Assembly (NCBI RefSeq): GCF_003966335.1
Contig: NZ_CP034549.1
Span: 2,640,001-2,672,000, forward strand
Length of the DNA: 32,000 bases
Source: Nonlabens ponticola
GTDB lineage: Bacteria > Bacteroidota > Bacteroidia > Flavobacteriales > Flavobacteriaceae
Direction of reading: 5' to 3'
A program made the translations under genes and the position numbers. Within the stretch, counting starts at the first letter, position 1; each line of letters opens with the position of its first letter. The notes under the pieces were generated by a model. It saw only the letters and a program-made list of their open reading frames with translations, was not told the DNA's origin and made no database searches. Shown here one piece after another: positions 4,645 through 30,620 of this stretch.

Positions 4645-7600
4645 TTAAAATTTGACATTCATTCCTAGAAGAAACGTTCTAGGTACTGGATAAAAACCTG
4701 GATCAATACCACCACCTATAGGCGCACCACTACTGGCACTAGGATCAAAACCTCTATATTTTGTTAAGGTAAATAGGTTGTTGACGGATCCGTAAAACCT
4801 TACCTCTTCAATATTTTTTCTGGCACCAGCATCATTAAACGTATATCCCAACTGTAGATTCTGCATTCTTAAAAAGGATGCGTCCTCAACAAAGTAATCA
4901 GAGAATATTCTATTGGCAGTTGCTCCGGTTGTCACACGAGGAACTGAATTTGACGTTCCTGGACCAGTCCATCGCGCTAAATCGTTAGTCGTAACGTTTG
5001 TAAGATTCTGACTACGTTCATAATTGCGCACCATATCATTACCGATGGATGCATATAAATAAGTCTGAAAATCAAAATTCCTATAATTAAAGGATAAATT
5101 AAGACCCATGGTAACGTCTGCAATTGGATCACCTATGTTCACACGATCATCTTGATCGATGACACCATCATTGTTTACATCAACAAATCTTATATCACCT
5201 GGCTGGGCGTTAGCTCCCAACGCTATTTGTGATGGATGTGCAGCCACCTCGGCAGCATTTTGAAAAATCCCATCTGTTCTCAAACCGTAGAAATATCCTA
5301 GTGGCTGTCCTTCTTCCATACGGGCTGGTGGTAGTTGACCGATACCGAATTGACCACCTTCTATAAATCCTACCGTGTTATTTACATCTAGAACCTCGTT
5401 ATCAATTACACCTATATTATAATTGACACCATAACTAAATTCATCTGTGATTTCACCATTGTAACCTATCGCAAACTCAAGACCTCTATTGCGCACCGAT
5501 CCACCATTTACCACTGGCGCTCCTGATCCTGGTGCCGCCGCACCTAGAATTCCCGATACGCTGGTTGTGATAAGTAGATCTTCTGTTCTTCTATTAAAAA
5601 CATCAAATGAGGTAGTCAAATTCCCGTCTAGAAAATTTGCATCAATACCAAAGTTAGCTACGTATTGTTCTTCCCACTTAAGCTCTGGATTTGAAATGGT
5701 TCCTGCGGCTGTTCCAAAAACAAGAACGTCATCAAATGGATAGGTCCCTTCACCGTTAAGTAAGGATGTAAAAGCGAATGCCGGTATTCTATCATTACCC
5801 GCGACACCGTAAGAGAATCTCACTTTAAGAAAATCTATCCAATCCTCATCATCCATAAATTCTTCTAACGACGGTACCCAACCAACGCTTGCGCTAGGGA
5901 AAAATCCGTATTTGTTACGCGGACCAAAATTGGAGCTACCATCTCGTCTAGCCTGTGCGGTAAATAGGTATTTATCATCGTAACTGTACCTAAGTCTCAC
6001 GAATTGCGAGAACAGACGTTGATCAAATGTGTCGCCACCGTTTACAAAATTATCTACCACATCTACTGCATTCTCAATGCTGGCATTTGCGATATCATTG
6101 TCTGGTATATCAAATCCAGTAAATCCATTGAACTTTCCTGTTGTTCTAAAGGCAGATATACCCAAGGTGGCTTGTACGTTGTGCACTTTCGCGAAAGCGT
6201 GCTCATAATTGAGATAGGAGTCAAACGTATAATCACGGAAGTAGTTACTGAATGTATTGTAAACGCTGCGCTCGACATTGAAAACTTTACCAGAACCGTA
6301 GAATACCTCTGGAGCAAAACTGTAACCGGAAACTTCGCTGTAGTTGGTCTGGATTCTTGAGGTAAGTTCAAAATCGTTCAAAAAGCTGTAAGTAAGACCA
6401 AAATTACCGCTCACCTTAAGAATGTTTGTCTCGTTGAATGAATTGGCGATTTGAGCTATTGGGTTGATAACCTCATTTCCCAGACCTTCGGCCAGTGAAA
6501 ACTCTCCATCTTCATCTCTAATAGGAATGGTAGGAGCCATGTTGAGAGCATTAAACAATACAGAGCCCAAACCAGATTCATTAATAGCGCGTCTATTGCT
6601 ATAATTGAGAAGAACACCAGTTTTCATTTCTAGATTATCCAACCAGAAATGATCGAAATTCCCTCTAAAAGTGCTGCGCTGGAATTTTGACTTTTCTGCA
6701 CCGACAATTCCATCTTGTAATAAAACAGAAGCACCTGCACCATAGGCTGATTTTTCAGTACCGCCACGTATACCAAGGTTATTGAAAAATATAGGAGCAT
6801 CGTCAAATACCTCATCCTGGTAGTCCACGTCACTCAGCTGTGTAAGATCTGGAAAAGGAATAGGCTCGCCGTTATTTGCAAATGCTTCATTTTTGAGCAA
6901 TGCATATTCTAGTGCATCGAGTGTTGGAAGCTTTCTTGTGGTTTGTTGGAAGCCTACATAAGCGTCATATTCTAGTTTGAGAGGCTGGTTGCGACGCCCA
7001 TTTTTTGTTGTGATAATTACTACACCGTTTGATGCGCGCACACCATAAATAGATGCCGTGGCATCCTTGAGTACTGATATGCTCTCAACATCATTAGGAT
7101 TGATAACACTCAAATCCTCGATGACATTACCATCAACAAGAATAAGTGGTCGCGAATCACCATTTGTCCCTATACCGCGTATTCTTATGTTTGAGGCAGA
7201 ACCTGGCGATCCTGATTGTGAGGTAATCGTTACCCCTGGAACTGTTCCTTGTAGTGCTTGTTCTATCCTAGTAGGCTTTAATTCCTCAATGGTCTCATTA
7301 TTAACAATAGATACTGCGCCTGTCACCTCTCTTACAGCTTGAGTACCATAACCTACGACCACCACTGCATCGAGTCCTGCGACATCTTGTTCTAGATTAA
7401 AAACGAGTGGACTTCCAGTGTACGTTTGACTTTTAGTTTTATAACCAACATATGAAACCACTATCACAGCACCATCATTTGCTGTAATTGTAAACTCACC
7501 GTCAAAGTCTGTTGTTACTGCCGTATTTGTGCCTTTAACTACAACTGTCGCTCCTAGAAGTGGTTCTCCTGTAGTCGCATCTGTGACAGTTCCATTAATT

Positions 7601-7662
7601 GTTTGCTGTGCAAATGAGAGAGAGCCCAGAAGTAAAAAAGTGATGGTAATAAATCTATTCAT
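4645..7662 (-). CDS. susC: SusC-family TonB-dependent outer-membrane transporter
   Basis: 1005 aa. Signal peptide, a carboxypeptidase-regulatory-like N-terminal domain (INGTVTDATTGEPLLGATVVVKG), a TonB-box-like DAVVVVGYG, a plug (SISVLKDATASIYGVRASNGVVIITTK), a long beta-barrel and a C-terminal aromatic residue (...GMNVKF). Confidence 0.95.
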   Translation of the reverse strand: MNRFITITFLLLGSLSFAQQTINGTVTDATTGEPLLGATVVVKGTNTAVTTDFDGEFTITANDGAVIVVSYVGYKTKSQTYTGSPLVFNLEQDVAGLDAVVVVGYGTQAVREVTGAVSIVNNETIEELKPTRIEQALQGTVPGVTITSQSGSPGSASNIRIRGIGTNGDSRPLILVDGNVIEDLSVINPNDVESISVLKDATASIYGVRASNGVVIITTKNGRRNQPLKLEYDAYVGFQQTTRKLPTLDALEYALLKNEAFANNGEPIPFPDLTQLSDVDYQDEVFDDAPIFFNNLGIRGGTEKSAYGAGASVLLQDGIVGAEKSKFQRSTFRGNFDHFWLDNLEMKTGVLLNYSNRRAINESGLGSVLFNALNMAPTIPIRDEDGEFSLAEGLGNEVINPIAQIANSFNETNILKVSGNFGLTYSFLNDFELTSRIQTNYSEVSGYSFAPEVFYGSGKVFNVERSVYNTFSNYFRDYTFDSYLNYEHAFAKVHNVQATLGISAFRTTGKFNGFTGFDIPDNDIANASIENAVDVVDNFVNGGDTFDQRLFSQFVRLRYSYDDKYLFTAQARRDGSSNFGPRNKYGFFPSASVGWVPSLEEFMDDEDWIDFLKVRFSYGVAGNDRIPAFAFTSLLNGEGTYPFDDVLVFGTAAGTISNPELKWEEQYVANFGIDANFLDGNLTTSFDVFNRRTEDLLITTSVSGILGAAAPGSGAPVVNGGSVRNRGLEFAIGYNGEITDEFSYGVNYNIGVIDNEVLDVNNTVGFIEGGQFGIGQLPPARMEEGQPLGYFYGLRTDGIFQNAAEVAAHPSQIALGANAQPGDIRFVDVNNDGVIDQDDRVNIGDPIADVTMGLNLSFNYRNFDFQTYLYASIGNDMVRNYERSQNLTNVTTNDLARWTGPGTSNSVPRVTTGATANRIFSDYFVEDASFLRMQNLQLGYTFNDAGARKNIEEVRFYGSVNNLFTLTKYRGFDPSASSGAPIGGGIDPGFYPVPRTFLLGMNVKF
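6185..6202. repeat. Partial copy (13 of 14 core positions) of the GCTTTCGCGAAAGC palindrome, inside susC
   Basis: actttcgcgaaagcgtgc. The 17-nt stretch ctttcgcgaaagcgtgc (6186-6202) is identical to the copy at 18227-18243. On the coding (minus) strand it reads GCT TTC GCG AAA = Ala-Phe-Ala-Lys (EHAFAKVHN). Confidence 0.7.
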
Positions 7663-11554: not shown

Positions 11555-11570
11555 AGCTTTCGCGAAAGCT
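11555..11570. repeat. 16-bp perfect palindrome AGCTTTCGCGAAAGCT (core GCTTTCGCGAAAGC)
   Basis: Read directly. It lies in the divergent promoter region, 33 nt upstream of the exonuclease start (11522) and 94 nt upstream of the start at 11664. Confidence 0.9.
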
Positions 11571-12415: not shown

Positions 12416-13704
12416 TCTTGCTTGAATAATTCCTTGCGCAATAAGACAGCCAAGACTGCAAAATATAGTAGGTAACTTATCGCGTGCGCCATTACAATAC
12501 CTTCAGTGTCATATTTTCTCACTAGGACATAGCTTGCTATGAGAAATGTTCCTAGACTCACAACCTCGGCAATCAGATATCTTTTCAAGTCGTTTTGAGC
12601 AATGAACCACATGGCCAATACGGTGGTGATTATTTTAATGAAATCACCGATGAGCTGCCATTTGAATAGCACCAGCATTCCTTCAAACTCTTCAGTAAAT
12701 AGAATACTGACTATCAAGTCTCTAGTGATAAAAATAGTCACGAGACCAGCAGCTAGCGGCAAAAGCAATGTCTTGTAAAAGTCAAGGCTTACCATCTTAA
12801 GATTTGATGCATCACTGGACTTGCTGAATTTAGGCAACACATACATACTGATAAGCGTAGTGAAAAACAGCATGTAGTAAGATGATACGCGCTGTATCGC
12901 TTCCCACAAACCTGCGGCATCATCATTGACCACGGCACGCAAATCCTGTCGCACCAAAATATGGACCACAGGAATCAGCACCGCACTCGCAAGCGCCATA
13001 AAGCTGTAGGATAATAAAGGCTTTAAACTGTTTTTGTCAAATGATCCCGTAATTGATGGAAAAAGAGGCAGGTCTTTTCTATGGTAATACCAAATGACGA
13101 TTGCCGTCACACATTGTATGATAGGTGCGATAACAATACCTGTCAAAGCACCGCTTAATTGATTCGTATAAATCAACCATGCACTGACGGCAAAAACCAA
13201 TACATTGACTGCTATATTAAGAGAAATGAATCGCTTGTACCATTCAAATCCCTGCATCATGGATGCGATGAAAATGAATAATGTATAGAATGGTAGTGAG
13301 ATAGCCAGATACTTAAAAACATAGGCATAGCTAGTTTCCAGTCCTATCAAGTAATTATCCAGCACCGAGGCAAGAAAGAAAGTAGTGATTCCTAATATTA
13401 CTGATATAGCAATACCAGCTATCCAGGCCGTGCTATATATTTTGCGCAACTGTTGTGGCTCTTTTTTGAGACTTGCTGCATGTCTTACCAGACCATTCTC
13501 AAGACCTAGCACGCTAAAGGTTTGTACGCCTTGCATGAAATTGCGCAGATTACCCAACACACCCAATCCTGTAGCACCTGCAAAAACGGCTAGAATATAA
13601 GACATCGCAGAGCCAAGACCTATGCGTACCAAAATCTGGATAGAGTTATATCCAGCCACCTTGAGCAATAAATTTTTATTTAAATACTTGAATAGATGTC
13701 TCAT
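12412..13704 (-). CDS. Wzx-type polysaccharide/oligosaccharide flippase (MOP superfamily; WzxE / lipid III flippase-like)
   Basis: 430 aa, hydrophobic throughout with about 12 predicted TM segments. Its start overlaps the aminotransferase stop by 4 nt (13701-13704). The gene order aminotransferase -> flippase resembles wecE-wzxE. Confidence 0.7.
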   Translation of the reverse strand: MRHLFKYLNKNLLLKVAGYNSIQILVRIGLGSAMSYILAVFAGATGLGVLGNLRNFMQGVQTFSVLGLENGLVRHAASLKKEPQQLRKIYSTAWIAGIAISVILGITTFFLASVLDNYLIGLETSYAYVFKYLAISLPFYTLFIFIASMMQGFEWYKRFISLNIAVNVLVFAVSAWLIYTNQLSGALTGIVIAPIIQCVTAIVIWYYHRKDLPLFPSITGSFDKNSLKPLLSYSFMALASAVLIPVVHILVRQDLRAVVNDDAAGLWEAIQRVSSYYMLFFTTLISMYVLPKFSKSSDASNLKMVSLDFYKTLLLPLAAGLVTIFITRDLIVSILFTEEFEGMLVLFKWQLIGDFIKIITTVLAMWFIAQNDLKRYLIAEVVSLGTFLIASYVLVRKYDTEGIVMAHAISYLLYFAVLAVLLRKELFKQD

Positions 13705-14843
13705 TCAAAGCTGTTCACGGTATCAATCACTCGTTGCACTTCCTGATCACTTAATAATGGGTGACACGGAATGCTCAGTTGGGTTTTATGCAGTCGTTCT
13801 GTAACGGGAAAATTAAATGCGTTGAATTCAGGATAGACCTCTTGATGATGTGGCGGAATTTTATAATGAAAATTAGTACCGATTCCAGCGGCATCCATAT
13901 GCTGCACCAGTCTACCTCGATCATCAGAATATATTGGGAAAACATGATGCGCATTGTGCTCGATCCATAAAGAATTAGGCACCTGTATTTTTTCATGTTT
14001 GATGCTGGAAATATAGGTTTCTGCGATCTCGCGACGTCTCGCATTGTCTTGATCTAGTAATGGTAAACGATTTGAGAGAAAACCTGCTTGCAAGGGATCC
14101 AATCGCGAGTTCACACCTAGAACGTCATTGACATATCGCGATTCACGACCATAGTTGGCTATTTTCCTGCACATGCTTCCCAGCTCTTCATCATCTGTCA
14201 CGATGGCTCCAGCATCACCTAATGCGCCCAGATTTTTGGTTGGGTAAAAGGAAAAAGCACTGGCTCTGCCGCGTGAGCCAGATCGCATTCCTTGATCGGT
14301 TCTAGCGCCGTGGGCTTGAGCAGCGTCAGTGTAGATGGGTATTTTTTTTGCTTTCGCGCCTGCCTGCCGGTCAGGCAGGAAAGCATACACCTCATCATCC
14401 ACCAGTTTACCATAAATATCTACCGCAATTACTCCATGGATGTTATCTAGCTGGTTCTTGATTTTATCTGCCGTGAGCAGTAATTCATCCACATCTACAG
14501 GAACAGGTATACAGCCTGCATTAGTGATGCTCAAGAATGTTGCGATGTAGGTATGTGCAGGCACCAGAATTCTAGCAGCTTTAGTTAAAACGCCTAACTC
14601 AACATCTGCACGCAGAATGATTTCTAGAGCTTCCAGACCGTTTGCAACGCCTATACAATGTTGGACACCGCAGTATGCGGCAAATTCGTTTTCAAATCGC
14701 GTGACCATATCGCCACCTATGTAGGTGCCACTATCATGCAAATGCTGCATGACGTCAAGATCCTGTTGCAGGAAACGACCTTGCAGGGACTTGAGATCTA
14801 GATATGGGATAGGAGCTGCCATCAAGCGGTTGAAGTTAATCAA
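13701..14843 (-). CDS. DegT/DnrJ/EryC1/StrS-family PLP-dependent sugar aminotransferase (WecE/RffA-like, dTDP-4-amino-4,6-dideoxyhexose type)
   Basis: 380 aa. Family motifs are TDAAQAHGA and the Schiff-base lysine context SFYPTKNLGALGDAG. It carries an extra LPDRQAG segment encoded by the split palindrome at 14350-14384. Confidence 0.85.
   Translation of the reverse strand: MINFNRLMAAPIPYLDLKSLQGRFLQQDLDVMQHLHDSGTYIGGDMVTRFENEFAAYCGVQHCIGVANGLEALEIILRADVELGVLTKAARILVPAHTYIATFLSITNAGCIPVPVDVDELLLTADKIKNQLDNIHGVIAVDIYGKLVDDEVYAFLPDRQAGAKAKKIPIYTDAAQAHGARTDQGMRSGSRGRASAFSFYPTKNLGALGDAGAIVTDDEELGSMCRKIANYGRESRYVNDVLGVNSRLDPLQAGFLSNRLPLLDQDNARRREIAETYISSIKHEKIQVPNSLWIEHNAHHVFPIYSDDRGRLVQHMDAAGIGTNFHYKIPPHHQEVYPEFNAFNFPVTERLHKTQLSIPCHPLLSDQEVQRVIDTVNSFE
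14350..14384. repeat. Split copy of the palindrome: gctttcgcg + 21-nt hairpin (cctgcctg-ccggt-caggcagg) + aaagc, in frame inside the aminotransferase CDS
   Basis: gctttcgcgcctgcctgccggtcaggcaggaaagc. The outer arms gctttc/gaaagc and inner arms cctgcctg/caggcagg are self-complementary. On the coding strand it reads A F L P D R Q A G A K A. Confidence 0.8.
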
Positions 14844-18224: not shown

Positions 18225-18240
18225 CGCTTTCGCGAAAGCG
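18225..18240. repeat. 16-bp perfect palindrome CGCTTTCGCGAAAGCG
   Basis: Read directly. It lies 133 nt upstream of the typA start, in the typA / UbiA-like divergent region. Confidence 0.9.
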
Positions 18241-18325: not shown

Positions 18326-18341
18326 CGCTTTCGCGAAAGCG
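18326..18341. repeat. 16-bp perfect palindrome CGCTTTCGCGAAAGCG
   Basis: Read directly. It lies 136 nt upstream of the UbiA-like gene start (18477) and 101 nt from the copy at 18225. Confidence 0.9.
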
Positions 18342-18476: not shown

Positions 18477-19325
18477 ATGGGATTGTTTGCTGTATTATTC
18501 TTTACCGTAAGAGCTGTAGCTTTTGACGGGCAAAACAATCCAATAGATAATGACTTGCAAAAATCCTGGTGGTGGATTGTTACAGGCGTTATAGCAGTAA
18601 TCTCATTTTTCTTCAGACTTAGGGTGTTTGACGAGATTAAGGATTTTTCCATAGACTCTGTCAATCATCCCGATAGGGTTCTTCAAAGTGGACGTGTCCA
18701 TTTAAAGCAGTTGCAGATCATAAGTTATTCGCTAATCGCGCTTGAAGTAGGATGGTCTTTGCTAACAGGTGTGCCCACATTCCTAGGCTGGCTTGCTGCT
18801 GTAGGCTATTCCCTATTGATGCGTTATGAGTTTTTTGTACCTGTGTTTTTAAAAAAGAGCCTTATCCTATATGGGTTCACGCACATGCTTATCATGCCGC
18901 TCATTATTTTATGGATATATGTGGCACACGCAGGTTTATATTTTCCATTAGCTTTCTGGTACGTGTGTGCAGCATCTTTGTTAGCAGGTTTTAGCTTTGA
19001 GATAGCGCGCAAAATTCATGCTCCTAGCCATGAAAGATCAGGAATCGATAGCTATTCAAAATCGTTAGGATTCAAAGTTGCTGTAGGCACATTACTTATT
19101 GTCTTGGCTGGTGGTCTAGCAGTTCAATATCTTCTATTAAATGCACTCGCTGCCAATTGGTATGTGGTAGCGTTGATAGGCATCATTTATCTGCTGTTAC
19201 TGATTCTATACATCACGAACCTGAGGAAGCCTGATGAAAATCAGTTGAGGAAAGGTGAATTGCTGGTAAGCCTGTTCATGATAGCCAGTTACCTGAGTGT
19301 CATTATAGTAGTCAATTTTCTATGA
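18477..19325 (+). CDS. UbiA-superfamily-like polytopic membrane protein (putative prenyltransferase, divergent)
   Basis: 282 aa with ~8 hydrophobic segments. A first Asp-rich motif-like stretch FDEIKDFSIDSVNHPDRVLQSGRV (nt 18627-) resembles NDxxDxxxD...RPLxSG of UbiA enzymes. The second motif region (ARKIHAPSHERSGIDSYSKSLG) is degenerate. An in-frame stop at 18423-18425 limits any N-terminal extension. Confidence 0.5.
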   Translation: MGLFAVLFFTVRAVAFDGQNNPIDNDLQKSWWWIVTGVIAVISFFFRLRVFDEIKDFSIDSVNHPDRVLQSGRVHLKQLQIISYSLIALEVGWSLLTGVPTFLGWLAAVGYSLLMRYEFFVPVFLKKSLILYGFTHMLIMPLIILWIYVAHAGLYFPLAFWYVCAASLLAGFSFEIARKIHAPSHERSGIDSYSKSLGFKVAVGTLLIVLAGGLAVQYLLLNALAANWYVVALIGIIYLLLLILYITNLRKPDENQLRKGELLVSLFMIASYLSVIIVVNFL

Positions 19326-21853
19326 TTCAAAAAGCCTATACTAATAACATGGGCGGCAAGGCTCGTGGCCTCTATAGATTGAAAGAGCTAGGATTAGATG
19401 TTCCCGATTTCATAGTGATACCCTATGATGTTTTCAAAAATGTGGTGGAAAGACATAATGATCCTGATATTCTGACACAGCAATTGGAGAAATATAAACT
19501 GGATCAACAAGTGGTAAGCAGGGTTGAAGAAGCTCTAGCGAAATGGGATTTTCCTAATCAAAAGATAGCCGTAAGATCATCCATTCTAGATGAGGATGGT
19601 AGCGATCATTCCTTTGCTGGTATGATGGACAGTTATTTAAATCTCTATGATAGAGAGAGTGTGTTTGAAGCAATAAAGAAGTGTGCGGCAAGTGCCTATT
19701 CACATCGATCCATCACTTACCGCGAGGAGAACGAGTTGCCCTCACGAGCACGTCCAGCAGTCCTCGTACAAAAACAGATCAACGCAACGGCCAGCGGCGT
19801 GATTTTCACGACGTCGCCTATTTATCCTCAAGAGGTTGCCATACACATGGCGCAAGGCCTGGGCGACAAATTGGTGAGCGGTCAAGTAGCGGCAGATGAG
19901 TTTTATTACTTGAAAAAATCTGGGAAATTACACCGCTGCATGACCACCGATAATCTAGATTTCAATAATGATATATTAGAAGATCCGTCTAGTAGAGAAG
20001 ATAATGACACGATAGGCACATTGCCTGATTATGTTCATCAGGATTTGTTGGATTACGCTTTCGCGAAAGCGGAACAGATAGAAGCCTTATACGGTCCTAG
20101 TGACATTGAGTTTTGTATAAAAGATGACCAATTCTATTTTCTACAATTAAGACCTATTACGACCAAGATTCCCGATGTCACCGTGTTTGATAATTCAAAC
20201 ATTCAAGAAAGTTATTGCGGTGTGACCACACCATTGACGTTTTCATTTGCGACACGTGCCTATGGTACTGTTTATAAGCAAACAATGAAAGTGGTAGGCA
20301 TCAACCAGCGGACGATTGACGACTATCAAAACGTACTCAATAATTTGCTGGCGCTTAGAAAAGGTCGCATTTATTACAACATCAATAACTGGTATCGCGG
20401 CCTGCAGCTGTTGCCATCCTTTAGCCAAAACAAGGAAGACATGGAGGCAATGATGGGACTGGAAGAGCCTGTGGATTTTGTAATTGACACCAAAAAAAGT
20501 TGGCGAGAAAAAATACAATTACTGCCGTCGCTTATTCTGAATCTGTCGCGATTACTGCTTGAATTTAAACGCCTTAAAAAACGTACCGAGCGCTTTAAAC
20601 ACGATTTTAATGAGGTGTATCGCAACTTTTATCGTGACTCAAATCCTTCGGTATCATTGCAAGAGTTCATTAAACGCCGTCATCAATTAGATGAATTATT
20701 GTATCAATGGGACGTGCCTATCATCAACGACTTTAAGGTCATGATGAGCAATGGTAAGGTAAAACGGGCATTGGAAAGCATAGGTATCAAGAAAACGGAA
20801 GCTTTTCTAGCCCTTTATTTATCAAATGATCATGAGATTGAAAGTGCCTTTCCTACCAGACTTATGATTGATCTAGCAAGCGAAGTTGATCGTGATCCAG
20901 AGTTATGTAAACTTATAAAAGCCTTACCTCAAGAATTGCATCATCAAATTAAAGCTAGCTATCCAGAATTTTATTTGAAGGTAGAAGATTTTATGGATAG
21001 ATATGGTGATCGCACTATTGGCGAACTGAAGCTTGAGACTATCACCATGCGGGTTCAACCTCAAATTTTCTATCAATACCTTAAAAACTTATTCGGCTAC
21101 CACAGTATTGATAAAGCTCCACAAAATTTACAGGATACAGCAAAGAAAGAGCTGGTGGAAGCCCTAGATGGTAAGTCCTTTTTTACAAAGCGATCTGTCA
21201 TTAATAAGCTCCATCAATTACAGGATAGCATTAGACGTCGCGAAAGTTTGCGACTGGACCGTACCAGGTTATTCGGTATGTATAGAACTCTTTATAGACA
21301 GTATGCCTCGCATCTAAAGAATCAAGATTTTATTGATCAAATAGATGATATATTCTACCTGACAGAAGATGAATTGATCAATGATCAACAAGATCATTTC
21401 AAAGAGCTTATCACAGAACGTCAAGGCCTTTTTGAATCATATGAATCTCAAGAAGTACCATCTCGTATTGTCCAGCCATATCCACCGGTAGGAAATGAAA
21501 AGCCTAAACTTGATGACAATGAATTAATGGGTCAAGGTTGTCATCCTGGTGAGGCAACTGGCGAGGTTCTCGTTATCACAAATCCTACAGATGATTTGAA
21601 TGTCAAAGACAAAATCATAGTCGCTCAACGTACTGATCCTGGATGGTGTGCGTTATTTCCATCTTGCCGTGCTGTCATTATTGAAAAAGGAAGCATGCTT
21701 TCCCATTCGGTTATCTTACTACGTGAATTAGGAATTCCAACGATTATCAATGTACCTGCGGTGACTAAAATCTTGAAAACCGGTCAAGAAATTAAAATGA
21801 ATGGCAGTACTGGCCACATTCAAATAATACAGAGAACTACTAAGAATGATTGA
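19322..21853 (+). CDS. PEP/pyruvate-binding (PPDK_N ATP-grasp) plus C-terminal PEP-utilising swivel-His domain protein; rifampicin-phosphotransferase-like architecture, substrate unknown
   Basis: 843 aa. The N-terminus GGKARGLYRLKELGLDVPDFIVIP resembles PPDK_N. The extreme C-terminus RTDPGWCALFPSCRAVIIEKGSMLSHSVILLRELGIPTIINV is a mobile phosphohistidine domain (His795, nt 21704-21706). No TIM-barrel PEP/pyruvate domain follows it. ATGA overlap with the upstream gene. Confidence 0.8.
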   Translation: MIQKAYTNNMGGKARGLYRLKELGLDVPDFIVIPYDVFKNVVERHNDPDILTQQLEKYKLDQQVVSRVEEALAKWDFPNQKIAVRSSILDEDGSDHSFAGMMDSYLNLYDRESVFEAIKKCAASAYSHRSITYREENELPSRARPAVLVQKQINATASGVIFTTSPIYPQEVAIHMAQGLGDKLVSGQVAADEFYYLKKSGKLHRCMTTDNLDFNNDILEDPSSREDNDTIGTLPDYVHQDLLDYAFAKAEQIEALYGPSDIEFCIKDDQFYFLQLRPITTKIPDVTVFDNSNIQESYCGVTTPLTFSFATRAYGTVYKQTMKVVGINQRTIDDYQNVLNNLLALRKGRIYYNINNWYRGLQLLPSFSQNKEDMEAMMGLEEPVDFVIDTKKSWREKIQLLPSLILNLSRLLLEFKRLKKRTERFKHDFNEVYRNFYRDSNPSVSLQEFIKRRHQLDELLYQWDVPIINDFKVMMSNGKVKRALESIGIKKTEAFLALYLSNDHEIESAFPTRLMIDLASEVDRDPELCKLIKALPQELHHQIKASYPEFYLKVEDFMDRYGDRTIGELKLETITMRVQPQIFYQYLKNLFGYHSIDKAPQNLQDTAKKELVEALDGKSFFTKRSVINKLHQLQDSIRRRESLRLDRTRLFGMYRTLYRQYASHLKNQDFIDQIDDIFYLTEDELINDQQDHFKELITERQGLFESYESQEVPSRIVQPYPPVGNEKPKLDDNELMGQGCHPGEATGEVLVITNPTDDLNVKDKIIVAQRTDPGWCALFPSCRAVIIEKGSMLSHSVILLRELGIPTIINVPAVTKILKTGQEIKMNGSTGHIQIIQRTTKND
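20056..20071. repeat. 16-bp perfect palindrome CGCTTTCGCGAAAGCG inside the PEP-utilising enzyme CDS
   Basis: Read directly. GCT at 20057 is in frame (codon 246), so it reads Ala-Phe-Ala-Lys-Ala within DYAFAKAEQ. Confidence 0.9.
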
Positions 21854-26754: not shown

Positions 26755-26770
26755 CGCTTTCGCGAAAGCG
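26755..26770. repeat. 16-bp perfect palindrome CGCTTTCGCGAAAGCG
   Basis: Read directly. It lies in the divergent region, 193 nt upstream of the adenylating-enzyme start (26562) and 179 nt upstream of the HAD ATG (26949). Confidence 0.9.
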
Positions 26771-29178: not shown

Positions 29179-29193
29179 CGCTTTCGCGAAAGC
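29179..29193. repeat. Palindrome copy CGCTTTCGCGAAAGC (14-bp core perfect)
   Basis: Read directly. It lies in the divergent region, 108 nt upstream of the bPH gene start (29071) and 99 nt upstream of the ffh start (29292). It shares the left flank attaCGCTTTCGCGAAAGC with the copy at 20052-20070. Confidence 0.9.
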
Positions 29194-29291: not shown

Positions 29292-30620
29292 ATGTTTGAT
29301 AATTTAACGGATAAACTGGACAAAGCGATGCACGTCCTTAAGGGACATGGTAGCATCACAGAGGTCAATGTAGCAGACACGCTCAAAGAAATACGTCGTG
29401 CCCTTGTGGATGCCGATGTTAACTATAAAATCGCCAAGGAATTTACCAGAACGGCCAAAGAAAAGGCACTAGGTCAAGGCGTACTCACAACGCTCAAACC
29501 TGGTCAATTACTGACTAAGATCGTTAAAGATGAGTTAACTGAACTTATGGGCGGCAGCGTAGAAGGCATTAATTTATCAGGAAATCCATCGGTGATTCTT
29601 ATGTCTGGTTTGCAGGGATCTGGTAAGACTACCTTTTCTGGTAAACTAGCTAACTATCTCAAAACTAAAAAGAGCAAAAAGCCACTACTCGTTGCTTGTG
29701 ATATTTATCGTCCCGCGGCGATTGATCAGCTGCATGTAGTAGGTGAATCCATAGGTGTTGAGGTATTCTCAAATCGCGATGAGAAGAATCCCGTGAAAAT
29801 TTCTGAAGCAGCGATTGCTCATGCTAAGGCTAACGGATTTAATGCCGTCATTATTGATACCGCCGGTCGTCTAGCGATCGATGAACAAATGATGAACGAG
29901 ATTGCCGAGGTTCACGCAGCCGTTAAGCCTCAAGAAACGCTCTTTGTAGTGGATTCTATGACGGGTCAAGACGCTGTGAATACCGCTAAGGCCTTTAATG
30001 AGAAACTGAACTTTGATGGTGTAGTACTTACCAAATTGGATGGTGATACTCGCGGTGGTGCTGCTCTTTCTATAAAAAGTGTGGTTGACAAGCCTATTAA
30101 ATTTATAGGTACGGGTGAGAAAATGGAAGCCATTGATGTGTTCTACCCAGAACGTATGGCAGACCGTATCCTAGGAATGGGTGATGTTGTATCGTTAGTT
30201 GAAAGAGCTCAAGAACAATTTGACGAAGAAGAAGCCCGCAAGCTGAGTAAGAAAATCGCTAAAAATCAATTCGGTTTTGATGACTTCCTATCTCAAATCC
30301 AGCAGATCAAGAAAATGGGTAACATGAAAGATCTTATGGGTATGATTCCAGGTGCTGGCAAGATGCTCAAGGATGTGGATATCGACGATGATGCCTTTAA
30401 AGGTATTGAAGCCATCATACATTCCATGACCGTTGAAGAACGCACAAAGCCACAAGTGATTAATGGCTCTAGAAAAAAACGTATCGCAAAAGGTAGCGGT
30501 ACCAGCGTAACCGAAGTCAATCAACTGCTCAAACAATTTGACCAGATGAGCAAGATGATGAAGATGATGCAAGGCGGCAAAGGAAAGGCAATGATGCAAG
30601 CCATGAGTAAAATGAGGTAA
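29292..30620 (+). CDS. ffh: Signal recognition particle protein Ffh
   Basis: 442 aa. N domain, G domain (GLQGSGKTT, DTAGR, TKLDGD) and Met-rich M domain (MGNMKDLMGMIPG...MSKMMKMMQ). Confidence 0.95.
   Translation: MFDNLTDKLDKAMHVLKGHGSITEVNVADTLKEIRRALVDADVNYKIAKEFTRTAKEKALGQGVLTTLKPGQLLTKIVKDELTELMGGSVEGINLSGNPSVILMSGLQGSGKTTFSGKLANYLKTKKSKKPLLVACDIYRPAAIDQLHVVGESIGVEVFSNRDEKNPVKISEAAIAHAKANGFNAVIIDTAGRLAIDEQMMNEIAEVHAAVKPQETLFVVDSMTGQDAVNTAKAFNEKLNFDGVVLTKLDGDTRGGAALSIKSVVDKPIKFIGTGEKMEAIDVFYPERMADRILGMGDVVSLVERAQEQFDEEEARKLSKKIAKNQFGFDDFLSQIQQIKKMGNMKDLMGMIPGAGKMLKDVDIDDDAFKGIEAIIHSMTVEERTKPQVINGSRKKRIAKGSGTSVTEVNQLLKQFDQMSKMMKMMQGGKGKAMMQAMSKMR

Follow-up and report, generated by a model that had tools for sequence, protein, structure and literature searches.

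This study examined a 21-nt hairpin that splits a 14-nt palindrome inside a sugar aminotransferase gene of Nonlabens ponticola, in a stretch of 32,000 nt (contig NZ_CP034549.1, positions 2,640,001 to 2,672,000; hereafter the window, to which all coordinates refer). The site is probably one at which a member of a family of mobile mini-hairpins inserted into the 14-mer. At 14350-14384 of the plus strand, the window reads GCTTTCGCG + CCTGCCTGCCGGTCAGGCAGG + AAAGC, and excising the 21 nt at 14359..14379 recreates the exact 14-mer GCTTTCGCGAAAGC. The left part of the split palindrome, GCTTTCGCG, lies at 14350..14358, and this 9-mer is found in the window only here and within copies of the 14-mer; the right part, AAAGC, lies at 14380..14384, and orthologues carry GCTTTCGCGAAAGC uninterrupted. 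Because a G is common to insert and target, the insert can equally be placed at 14358-14378, so that the junction falls after nucleotide 9 or nucleotide 8 of the 14-mer. The original prediction, made from the letters of the window, had described 21 nt that split the 14-mer and add the in-frame peptide LPDRQAG, and this description was confirmed; the insert, which it had placed at the centre of the 14-mer, actually lies 1-2 nt off centre.

The host gene (13701..14843, minus strand) encodes a sugar aminotransferase of the DegT/DnrJ/EryC1/StrS family and is intact except for the 7-residue insertion. On the coding strand, the site reads GCT TTC / CTG CCT GAC CGG CAG GCA GGC / GCG AAA GCA, which translates to AF-LPDRQAG-AKA and gives LPDRQAG as residues 156-162 of a 380-aa open reading frame (ORF). 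PF01041 was assigned to this protein and to every listed homologue; the closest named homologues were those of Nonlabens spp. (57-61% identity), and the solved sugar aminotransferases 5u1z and 7n63 matched it with E values of approximately 1e-78. An alignment of 30 sequences revealed that LPDRQAG was confined to the window protein, with all 29 homologues lacking it down to 41% identity. The orthologous Nonlabens proteins read DEVYAF-AKA at this position, and HMMER alignments to the solved homologues 5u1z, 7n63, and 5u21 contained a gap there. An equivalent segment in distant orthologues, against which the original prediction had cautioned, was thus absent from those aligned.

To compare the orthologous DNA, we used five loci that are syntenic with the window: bipA, two small genes, degT, a flippase gene and others, followed by an RNase_T-like gene and a Y_Y_Y gene. 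The 21 nt were absent from all orthologues compared. Four of the five, from Nonlabens sp. YIK11, N. antarcticus, N. marinus S1-08, and a Nonlabens metagenome-assembled genome (MAG), carry the exact empty 14-mer (TAC GCT TTC GCG AAA GCG), with neighbouring synonymous positions differing between the species; the N. ulvanivorans orthologue carries GCT TTT GCG GCA GCG in its place. Because syntenic orthologues carry the uninterrupted 14-mer, the ancestral state, as read from these loci, is an intact 14-mer coding AFAKA, to which the window lineage added exactly 21 nt. Measured against the empty orthologous sites, no target base was duplicated or lost. The 29 homologues without the 7 residues and the four intact orthologous 14-mers bear out the proposal that a small palindromic element inserted in frame into the 14-mer.

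The 21-mer CCTGCCTGCCGGTCAGGCAGG is present as a single copy in the window. Folded as single-stranded DNA, it forms an 8-bp stem with a 5-nt loop, CCGGT (dG -8.6 kcal/mol, z = -3.9), and the whole 35-mer of 14-mer and insert folds as a nested hairpin (dG -11.4). The 14-mer alone forms a stem of 5 bp closed by the loop CGCG, and the insert is located at the 3' edge of this loop. An Rfam scan of 14200-14550 returned no real match. The gene remains intact because the element is 21 nt long and open in this frame. The window aminotransferase retains all 64 of the invariant columns of the family alignment, including D173, A175, Q176, and K203. An AlphaFold2 model built with the 30-sequence alignment had a mean predicted local distance difference test score (pLDDT) of 91.4 and a predicted template modelling score of 0.90, and residues 157-165 were its sole internal segment with a pLDDT of <50. 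In the model, a shortened helix at 150-155 is followed by coil up to the strand at 170-173 (IYTD) that enters the DAAQ motif. LPDRQAG therein is probably a 7-residue disordered surface loop interrupting the helix before that strand, and the enzyme with this extra floppy loop is probably still functional. The modelling proposed in the original prediction thus returned a low-confidence coil that is probably a surface loop, a placement that stands as a predicted one.

Other DegT homologues carry inserts of their own. The Dokdonia sinensis homologue (P0110) has TCPELVSG in frame directly after the AK, P0106 has 21 residues after the DAAQAHGA motif, and P0060 has KGYSPR.

A scan of metagenomes for GCTTTCGCG followed directly by any family member yielded two matches, L187 and L188. 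In L187, a TARA scaffold, GCTTTCGCG + CCTGCCTGTCCGTCAGGCAGG + AAAGC constitutes a second occupied 14-mer. The insert lies inside a Dokdonia-like M14 peptidase with a type IX secretion system tail and is read as AF-LPDGQAG-AKAF, whereas the corresponding stretch of eight orthologues (62-89% identity) is AFAKAF with no insert; the empty 14-mer GCT TTC GCG AAA GC is present in two orthologous DNAs (84% and 80% nucleotide identity). Judged from these orthologues, L187 is a second, independent insertion, in another gene and genus and with another loop variant. The position in the 14-mer and the orientation are the same as in the window. The suggestion of a site-specific insertion activity in the original prediction gains support from this second occupied 14-mer with empty orthologues. 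A third exact pair was found on a Leeuwenhoekiella contig, in which one of two paralogous repeats of approximately 180 nt, 360 nt apart, carries exactly the 21-mer, flanked by TTTCAGC and TTGCTGAAA, within the loop of the 7-bp palindrome TTTCAGC-TT-GCTGAAA. Target duplication was absent in all three exact pairs of empty and occupied sites (window, L187, and Leeuwenhoekiella). In L115 and L107, hairpin copies are nested in the loop of another family copy. The probability that a random insertion lands in a 14-mer is approximately 0.3%; no further occupied 14-mer was found in the 1.59 Mb of sequence examined.

Two other candidate sites were rejected. L188 has only the 9-mer in common with an occupied 14-mer and was considered a chance neighbour, and the L082 site, considered as a partial 14-mer, has only a half-site at another position. 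L187 also carries another family variant, CCTGCCTACCGGGCAGGCAGG, in intergenic DNA at 476-496, which brings the scaffold to two copies in 5.8 kb.

The hairpin itself is widespread. When 596 Gb of sequence, with each species represented by one genome, were scanned, the exact 21-mer CCTGCCTGCCGGTCAGGCAGG was found in at least 120 genome stretches, against a chance expectation of approximately 0.27, and the DNA flanking these copies was unrelated from one copy to another. The concern that the 21-mer might occur nowhere else is thereby answered. Among the matches listed, record titles assigned 54 stretches to Bacteroidota, 20 to Patescibacteria, 11 to Planctomycetota, 10 to Omnitrophota, 7 to Ignavibacteria, 6 to Acidobacteriota, and 12 to others, including Elusimicrobia, Sumerlaeota, Saganbacteria, and Desulfobacterota, and contained no Gammaproteobacteria, Firmicutes, Actinobacteria, or cyanobacteria. 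Many of the stretches are MAGs; the same matches include four cultured isolates, namely the Bacteroidota Terrimonas pollutisoli, Subsaximicrobium wynnwilliamsii, and Paucihalobacter ruber, and Mariprofundus erugo. The G+C content of the loci ranges from 30% to 71%. Among phage contigs, 11 stretches carry the exact 21-mer, 35 carry the perfect 20-nt palindrome CCTGCCTGCCGGCAGGCAGG with its 4-nt loop, and 30 carry the pattern CCTGCCTGCCGGNCAGGCAGG (N = T 11, A 11, C 9, G 1). The 21-mer is thus present in at least ten phylum-level groups and in phages. Because the 14-mer is essentially absent from the other hairpin loci, where it was found only four times in 1.43 Mb, always in Dokdonia or Flavobacteriaceae MAGs, the hairpin is, on this distribution, an element separate from the 14-mer and not its derivative.

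The family has a core of CCTGCCTG - CCGG or CCGG plus 1 nt - CAGGCAGG, 20-21 nt in all. Its stems are constant and its loops vary (CCGG, CCGG+T/A/C, CCGCA, and others), and mutated variants, some of them compensatory (CCTGTCTG...CAGACAGG), occur within the 21-mer loci. Copies were found in both orientations. Of 120 copies, 110 are directly preceded by a purine (G in 83, A in 27), and only 5 are followed by A; the flanks of the 21-mer revealed no consistent duplication or complementarity between them. Genomes may hold several copies: at least 12 MAGs are listed twice among the 120 stretches, and one phage contig has six copies. Among the papers searched, none gave a relevant account of the 14-mer, the 21-mer, its halves, or the peptides. 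The hairpin is apparently a widespread, undescribed family of ultra-small mobile elements.

The surroundings of some copies are also notable. In paralogous or orthologous regions of L090/L108 (one MAG), L041/L099 (one MAG), and the phage pairs L125/L132 and L122/L130, identical 21-mers occupy the same position between flanks that have clearly diverged (by approximately 10-25%, as estimated by eye), a pattern that suggests either reinsertion at a hot spot or constraint or homogenisation acting on the hairpin sequence. Intergenic copies often lie within tandem repeats of approximately heptamer length (L037, L120, L105, L055/L106, L133/L162, L141, and L156), with (GTGTCGG)n on both sides of the hairpin in L037; these resemble the heptamer STRR repeats of cyanobacteria. 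At the end of the phage contig L166 (19-230, minus strand), at least 10 units of the 21-nt variant CCTGCCTGCCGGTAGGCATGG form a tandem array.

We further investigated where the copies reside. Long open frames contain 51 of 123 copies (approximately 40%), and 42 of these 51 (82%) use the frame read as LPAGQAG (24) or LPDRQAG (18), compared with the 40% expected from five open frames (binomial p = 7e-10). This favoured frame is open in both orientations, reading LPAGQAG or LPDRQAG. Most host proteins were identified by eye from the translations; they include BipA (three times, at different sites), the tryptophanyl- and seryl-tRNA synthetases, DnaE, Mfd, MutL, FtsK, triosephosphate isomerase, HsdM, and HsdS, and one acidobacterial and one planctomycete HsdM gene hold two or three copies each. 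One BipA insert comprises exactly 7 residues. Comparison with solved structures confirmed the identities of triosephosphate isomerase and tryptophanyl-tRNA synthetase; aligned with their best solved homologues, these two show gaps of 6 and 9 residues, respectively, that enclose the inserts. An excision test on 20-mers that interrupt ORFs, which removal at the RNA level would restore, was confounded by the long spurious ORFs of GC-rich contigs. In the phage contig L157 (IMGVR_UViG_3300033148_008720), the 20-nt palindrome lies at 2284-2303, exactly in the variable loop of a tRNA-Met(cat); ARAGORN called this tRNA as 92 nt with a long extra arm and, after excision, as a canonical tRNA of 72 nt. 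L134 and L164 carry the hairpin in tRNA-like sequence that ARAGORN leaves uncalled.

Type I restriction-modification genes (HsdM, HsdS, and HsdR) recur in hairpin-bearing loci of four phyla (L011, L045, L050, L057, and L027), which may reflect tolerance of inserts or horizontal travel. In the HsdM genes of L045 and L050, two of the hairpins lie 3 nt apart at nearly one site. The L011 insert is in HsdS; as judged by eye, it separates the central conserved region from the second target-recognition domain, and it might alter specificity there.

In the reading that we favour, one copy of the hairpin entered, in the lineage of the window, a pre-existing copy of the genus-wide iterated 14-mer that was read in frame as AFAKA. 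The element would be non-autonomous and mobilised in trans as a single-stranded hairpin by an enzyme that might act preferentially on the loops of extruded palindromes or on single-stranded DNA. Selection would then filter the surviving copies towards the LP..QAG frame, surface loops, tRNA extra arms, and intergenic DNA. Any particular enzymology, for example an HUH/Y1-type enzyme, we regard as doubtful. A broader proposal can be advanced tentatively, at somewhat less than even confidence: the 20-21-nt hairpin would be an active pan-bacterial, phage-borne mobile element, the smallest known, that moves without target duplication by an undescribed mechanism, favours palindrome loops, and lands in lineage-specific iterated palindromes (the 14-mer here; HIP1 for the cyanobacterial repeat SDR5).

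Several results weigh against mobility of this kind. Neither the window nor the hairpin loci examined contained an enzyme or autonomous partner, and no transposase or nuclease gene lies within the 32 kb. A second hairpin copy was absent from the window and from 105 kb of the five Nonlabens loci. The scan pattern preset the insert position in L187, and the same orientation had a prior probability of 50%. Palindromic targets with stems of at least 5 bp were enriched only approximately 2-fold among 130 copies (9.2% vs 4.8%, p = 0.024); because this general target test gave no stronger enrichment, palindrome loops are a preference of the hairpin and not a requirement. Finally, neutral selfish DNA would hardly be expected to stay identical to the last letter across phyla; either very recent spread or a constraint on the sequence is needed. 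Additional searches of the hairpin loci gave little. Among solo half-sites in 1.48 Mb, a search for a parent insertion sequence (IS) with CCTGCCTGCC ends found only chance or decayed copies and one tandem array. Apart from the type I restriction-modification genes, no gene family was recurrently beside hairpins in the genome loci, and the gene clusters beside hairpins in viral loci merely reflected related phages.

The main rival to a mobile hairpin is a stereotyped filler of DNA breaks, which we consider unlikely. A conserved enzyme or template would add approximately 10 nt (CCTGCCTGCC), after which fold-back of the end and copying of itself would yield a palindrome with a variable centre of 0-2 nt; breaks would be common at fragile palindromes, the 14-mer among them. 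The constant stems and varying centre, the three exact pairs without target duplication, the palindrome loops among the targets, and the failure to find an associated transposase in the window or the hairpin loci are all consistent with this mechanism. Nevertheless, the same 21-mer, including the loop base, is present in at least 120 places, which fits the copying of a master better than independent fold-backs, and most targets are not palindromes. We know of no bacterial activity that adds a fixed 10-mer, which we also count against break filling.

Less probable still is the spread of a 35-nt composite of 14-mer and hairpin to this site, by conversion or site-specific recombination between 14-mers and with no fresh insertion. 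Such spread would explain two occupied 14-mers with the insert at the same position and orientation, and some homogenising process or selection is implied by the conservation of 14-mers at the DNA level across species. However, the loops of the two inserts differ (CCGGT vs TCCGT), the 1.59 Mb contained no other occupied 14-mer, the arms on either side, at 5-9 bp, fall short of what ordinary recombination needs, and the hairpin also resides in many sites that are not 14-mers.

That the 21-mer is a sequencing, library, or assembly artefact contaminating many assemblies is very improbable. Its constancy across unrelated datasets and the many MAGs among the matches would be expected of a contaminant, but copies lie far inside long contigs, the gene sequence continuing on either side with neither loss nor duplication, the reading-frame bias is strong, mutated and compensatory variants exist, and isolates and assemblies from different assemblers contain it. 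Nor, to our knowledge, is the 21-mer a sequencing adapter, a point that we also count against an artefact.

The nested palindrome that resulted would agree with a local origin of the 21 nt, through expansion of the 14-mer palindrome or template switching in replication, but we consider this origin already refuted: neither the 14-mer nor its flanks have anything in common with the 21 nt, and identical copies exist in many phyla that lack the 14-mer. Two suggestions of the original prediction fall with this result, namely that the insert expanded from the centre of the 14-mer and that the site captures the 14-mer family in the act of propagating; the hairpin is rather a separate element that uses the 14-mer as its target. 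The weakest alternative, also considered refuted, holds the 7 residues to be ancestral and lost in all other lineages, against which stand the 29 homologues and three solved structures without them and the fact that deleting them gives the exact 14-mer carried by four orthologues.

Insertion of a mobile hairpin thus remains the reading that we favour, and we also characterized its target. The window holds six exact copies of GCTTTCGCGAAAGC and one copy with 1 mismatch, compared with 0.00 expected from dinucleotide-preserving shuffles, and GCTTTCGCGAAAGC is the sole over-represented long palindrome of the window. Four of the empty copies are intergenic with or without an assigned neighbour: one at 11556..11569 lies 34 nt upstream of the RNase_T-like gene, one at 18226..18239 lies upstream of bipA, and two others lie at 18327..18340 and 26756..26769. 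A further intergenic copy at 29180..29193 lies 99 nt upstream of a 442-aa ORF (29292..30620), which we take to be ffh from its synteny and length match to the SRP54 genes of L189 and L190. The copy at 20057..20070 is inside the ORF of a PEP-utilising enzyme (19322..21853), in frame AFAKA, and the 1-mismatch copy ACTTTCGCGAAAGC at 6185..6198 is inside an ORF on the minus strand (4645..7662).

In 172 kb of Nonlabens- and Dokdonia-like sequence, we found 34 copies of the 14-mer (approximately 0.2 per kb), of which 19 are intergenic; 13 of the 15 coding copies are in frame AFAKA. Beyond the window, the loci with the 14-mer are L001, L189-L194, L046, and L082. Some positions are conserved, namely approximately 99 nt upstream of ffh, approximately 135 nt upstream of bipA, and 34-77 nt upstream of the RNase_T-like gene. 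The synonymous sites of the copies that code AFAKA are frozen. From these sequence comparisons, the 14-mer behaves as a HIP-like palindrome conserved at the DNA level. Its core contains TCGCGA, and its shape resembles that of the 14-16-bp palindromic binding sites of the ParB/Noc type. In one Nonlabens MAG (L192, 365-5867), a type II CRISPR-Cas system (Cas9, Cas1, and Cas2) adjoins bipA, where the window has other genes.

These findings have several implications. Very small mobile hairpin repeats that land in an iterated palindrome were previously reported only from Nostocaceae, and the same behaviour is now observed in Flavobacteriaceae; a cyanobacterial curiosity becomes a general phenomenon, with enough genomes for a phyletic search for the enzyme. 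The hairpin is a recurrent source of 7-residue insertions (LPAGQAG and LPDRQAG) in essential conserved proteins and of a tRNA extra arm. Its inserts constitute a natural experiment in insertion tolerance and, particularly in Patescibacteria, may confound alignments and annotation. Two independent insertions at one position of the 14-mer suggest that the palindrome is exposed or cut in vivo, and such hits provide a testable handle on what HIP-type palindromes do. If the hairpin is a pan-bacterial mobile element, iterated palindromes and mini-hairpins would be two halves of one general system, and a correlation between the number of hairpin copies and the gene content of genomes could then reveal the palindrome-cutting enzyme.

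We compared the hairpin with known systems of small repeats. Rickettsia palindromic elements (RPEs), reportedly described by Ogata et al. in 2000, are said to be selfish palindromic DNA residing in frame in protein genes whose function is kept. The hairpin likewise inserts in frame and adds a surface peptide. RPEs are approximately 100-150 bp long and restricted to Rickettsia, whereas the hairpin has 20-21 nt and is present in many phyla, and we do not count it among them. Miniature inverted-repeat transposable elements (MITEs) are similarly small, non-autonomous, and bounded by inverted-repeat ends; they are typically longer than 50-100 bp, are derived from IS elements with matching terminal repeats, and make target-site duplications. 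The hairpin is not assigned to the MITEs either, given that the three pairs revealed no duplication and that no half-sites bound larger elements in 1.48 Mb.

Repetitive extragenic palindromic (REP) sequences and REPINs are mobilised by RAYT (Y1 HUH) transposases, being short, GC-rich, non-autonomous hairpins that are thought to move as single-stranded DNA (PMC3116915, PMC3733652), and the loops of REPs in turn serve as insertion sites for IS elements (PMC3184786). The hairpin family is also short and GC-rich. In contrast to most REPs, which have a GTAG or CGTC head, the hairpin has no such head beside it, only a purine at -1 and a base other than A at +1. REPs are extragenic and lineage-specific, whereas the hairpin is approximately 40% intragenic and identical across phyla, and the window contains no RAYT gene. 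By its lack of a head and its location, the hairpin falls outside the REPs.

For the 14-mer, the closest comparison is HIP1 (GCGATCGC) of cyanobacteria, characterized as an exact, hugely over-represented palindrome of coding and non-coding DNA, its function unknown (PMC5861425). The 14-mer likewise is an exact palindrome, exceeds chance expectation by far, is found both inside and outside coding DNA, and recurs in related genomes. It differs from HIP1 in having 14 nt rather than 8, in its density of approximately 0.2 per kb with a concentration in intergenic DNA, in its conserved positions upstream of particular genes, and in its occurrence in Nonlabens and Dokdonia.

For the hairpin, the closest comparison is with the small dispersed repeats (SDRs), in particular SDR5. 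SDR4-6 are dispersed repeats of only 21-27 nt that are regarded as mobile; the hairpin resembles them in its 20-21 nt and 8-bp stem. Elhai et al. (Genome Res 18:1484) reportedly described SDRs in 2008 as having a hairpin core and an unknown mechanism. Both enter an iterated palindrome precisely and off centre: the hairpin enters after nucleotide 8/9 of 14, and SDR5 between nucleotides 3 and 4 of the 8-nt HIP1 (PMC4390886). Empty sites and a precise position in an iterated palindrome, as expected of SDRs, are seen here in three exact pairs, two of them in the 14-mer. SDRs are reported only from Nostocaceae and were not found outside that family (PMC5861425), whereas exact copies of this hairpin are present in no fewer than ten phylum-level groups as well as in phages; the target palindrome, and apparently the sequence, also differ. 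Frequent in-frame residence in conserved protein genes, and residence in a tRNA, were found for this hairpin. Compared in this way with SDRs as described, the hairpin is best regarded as an analogue of the SDRs and not filed as a member of them.

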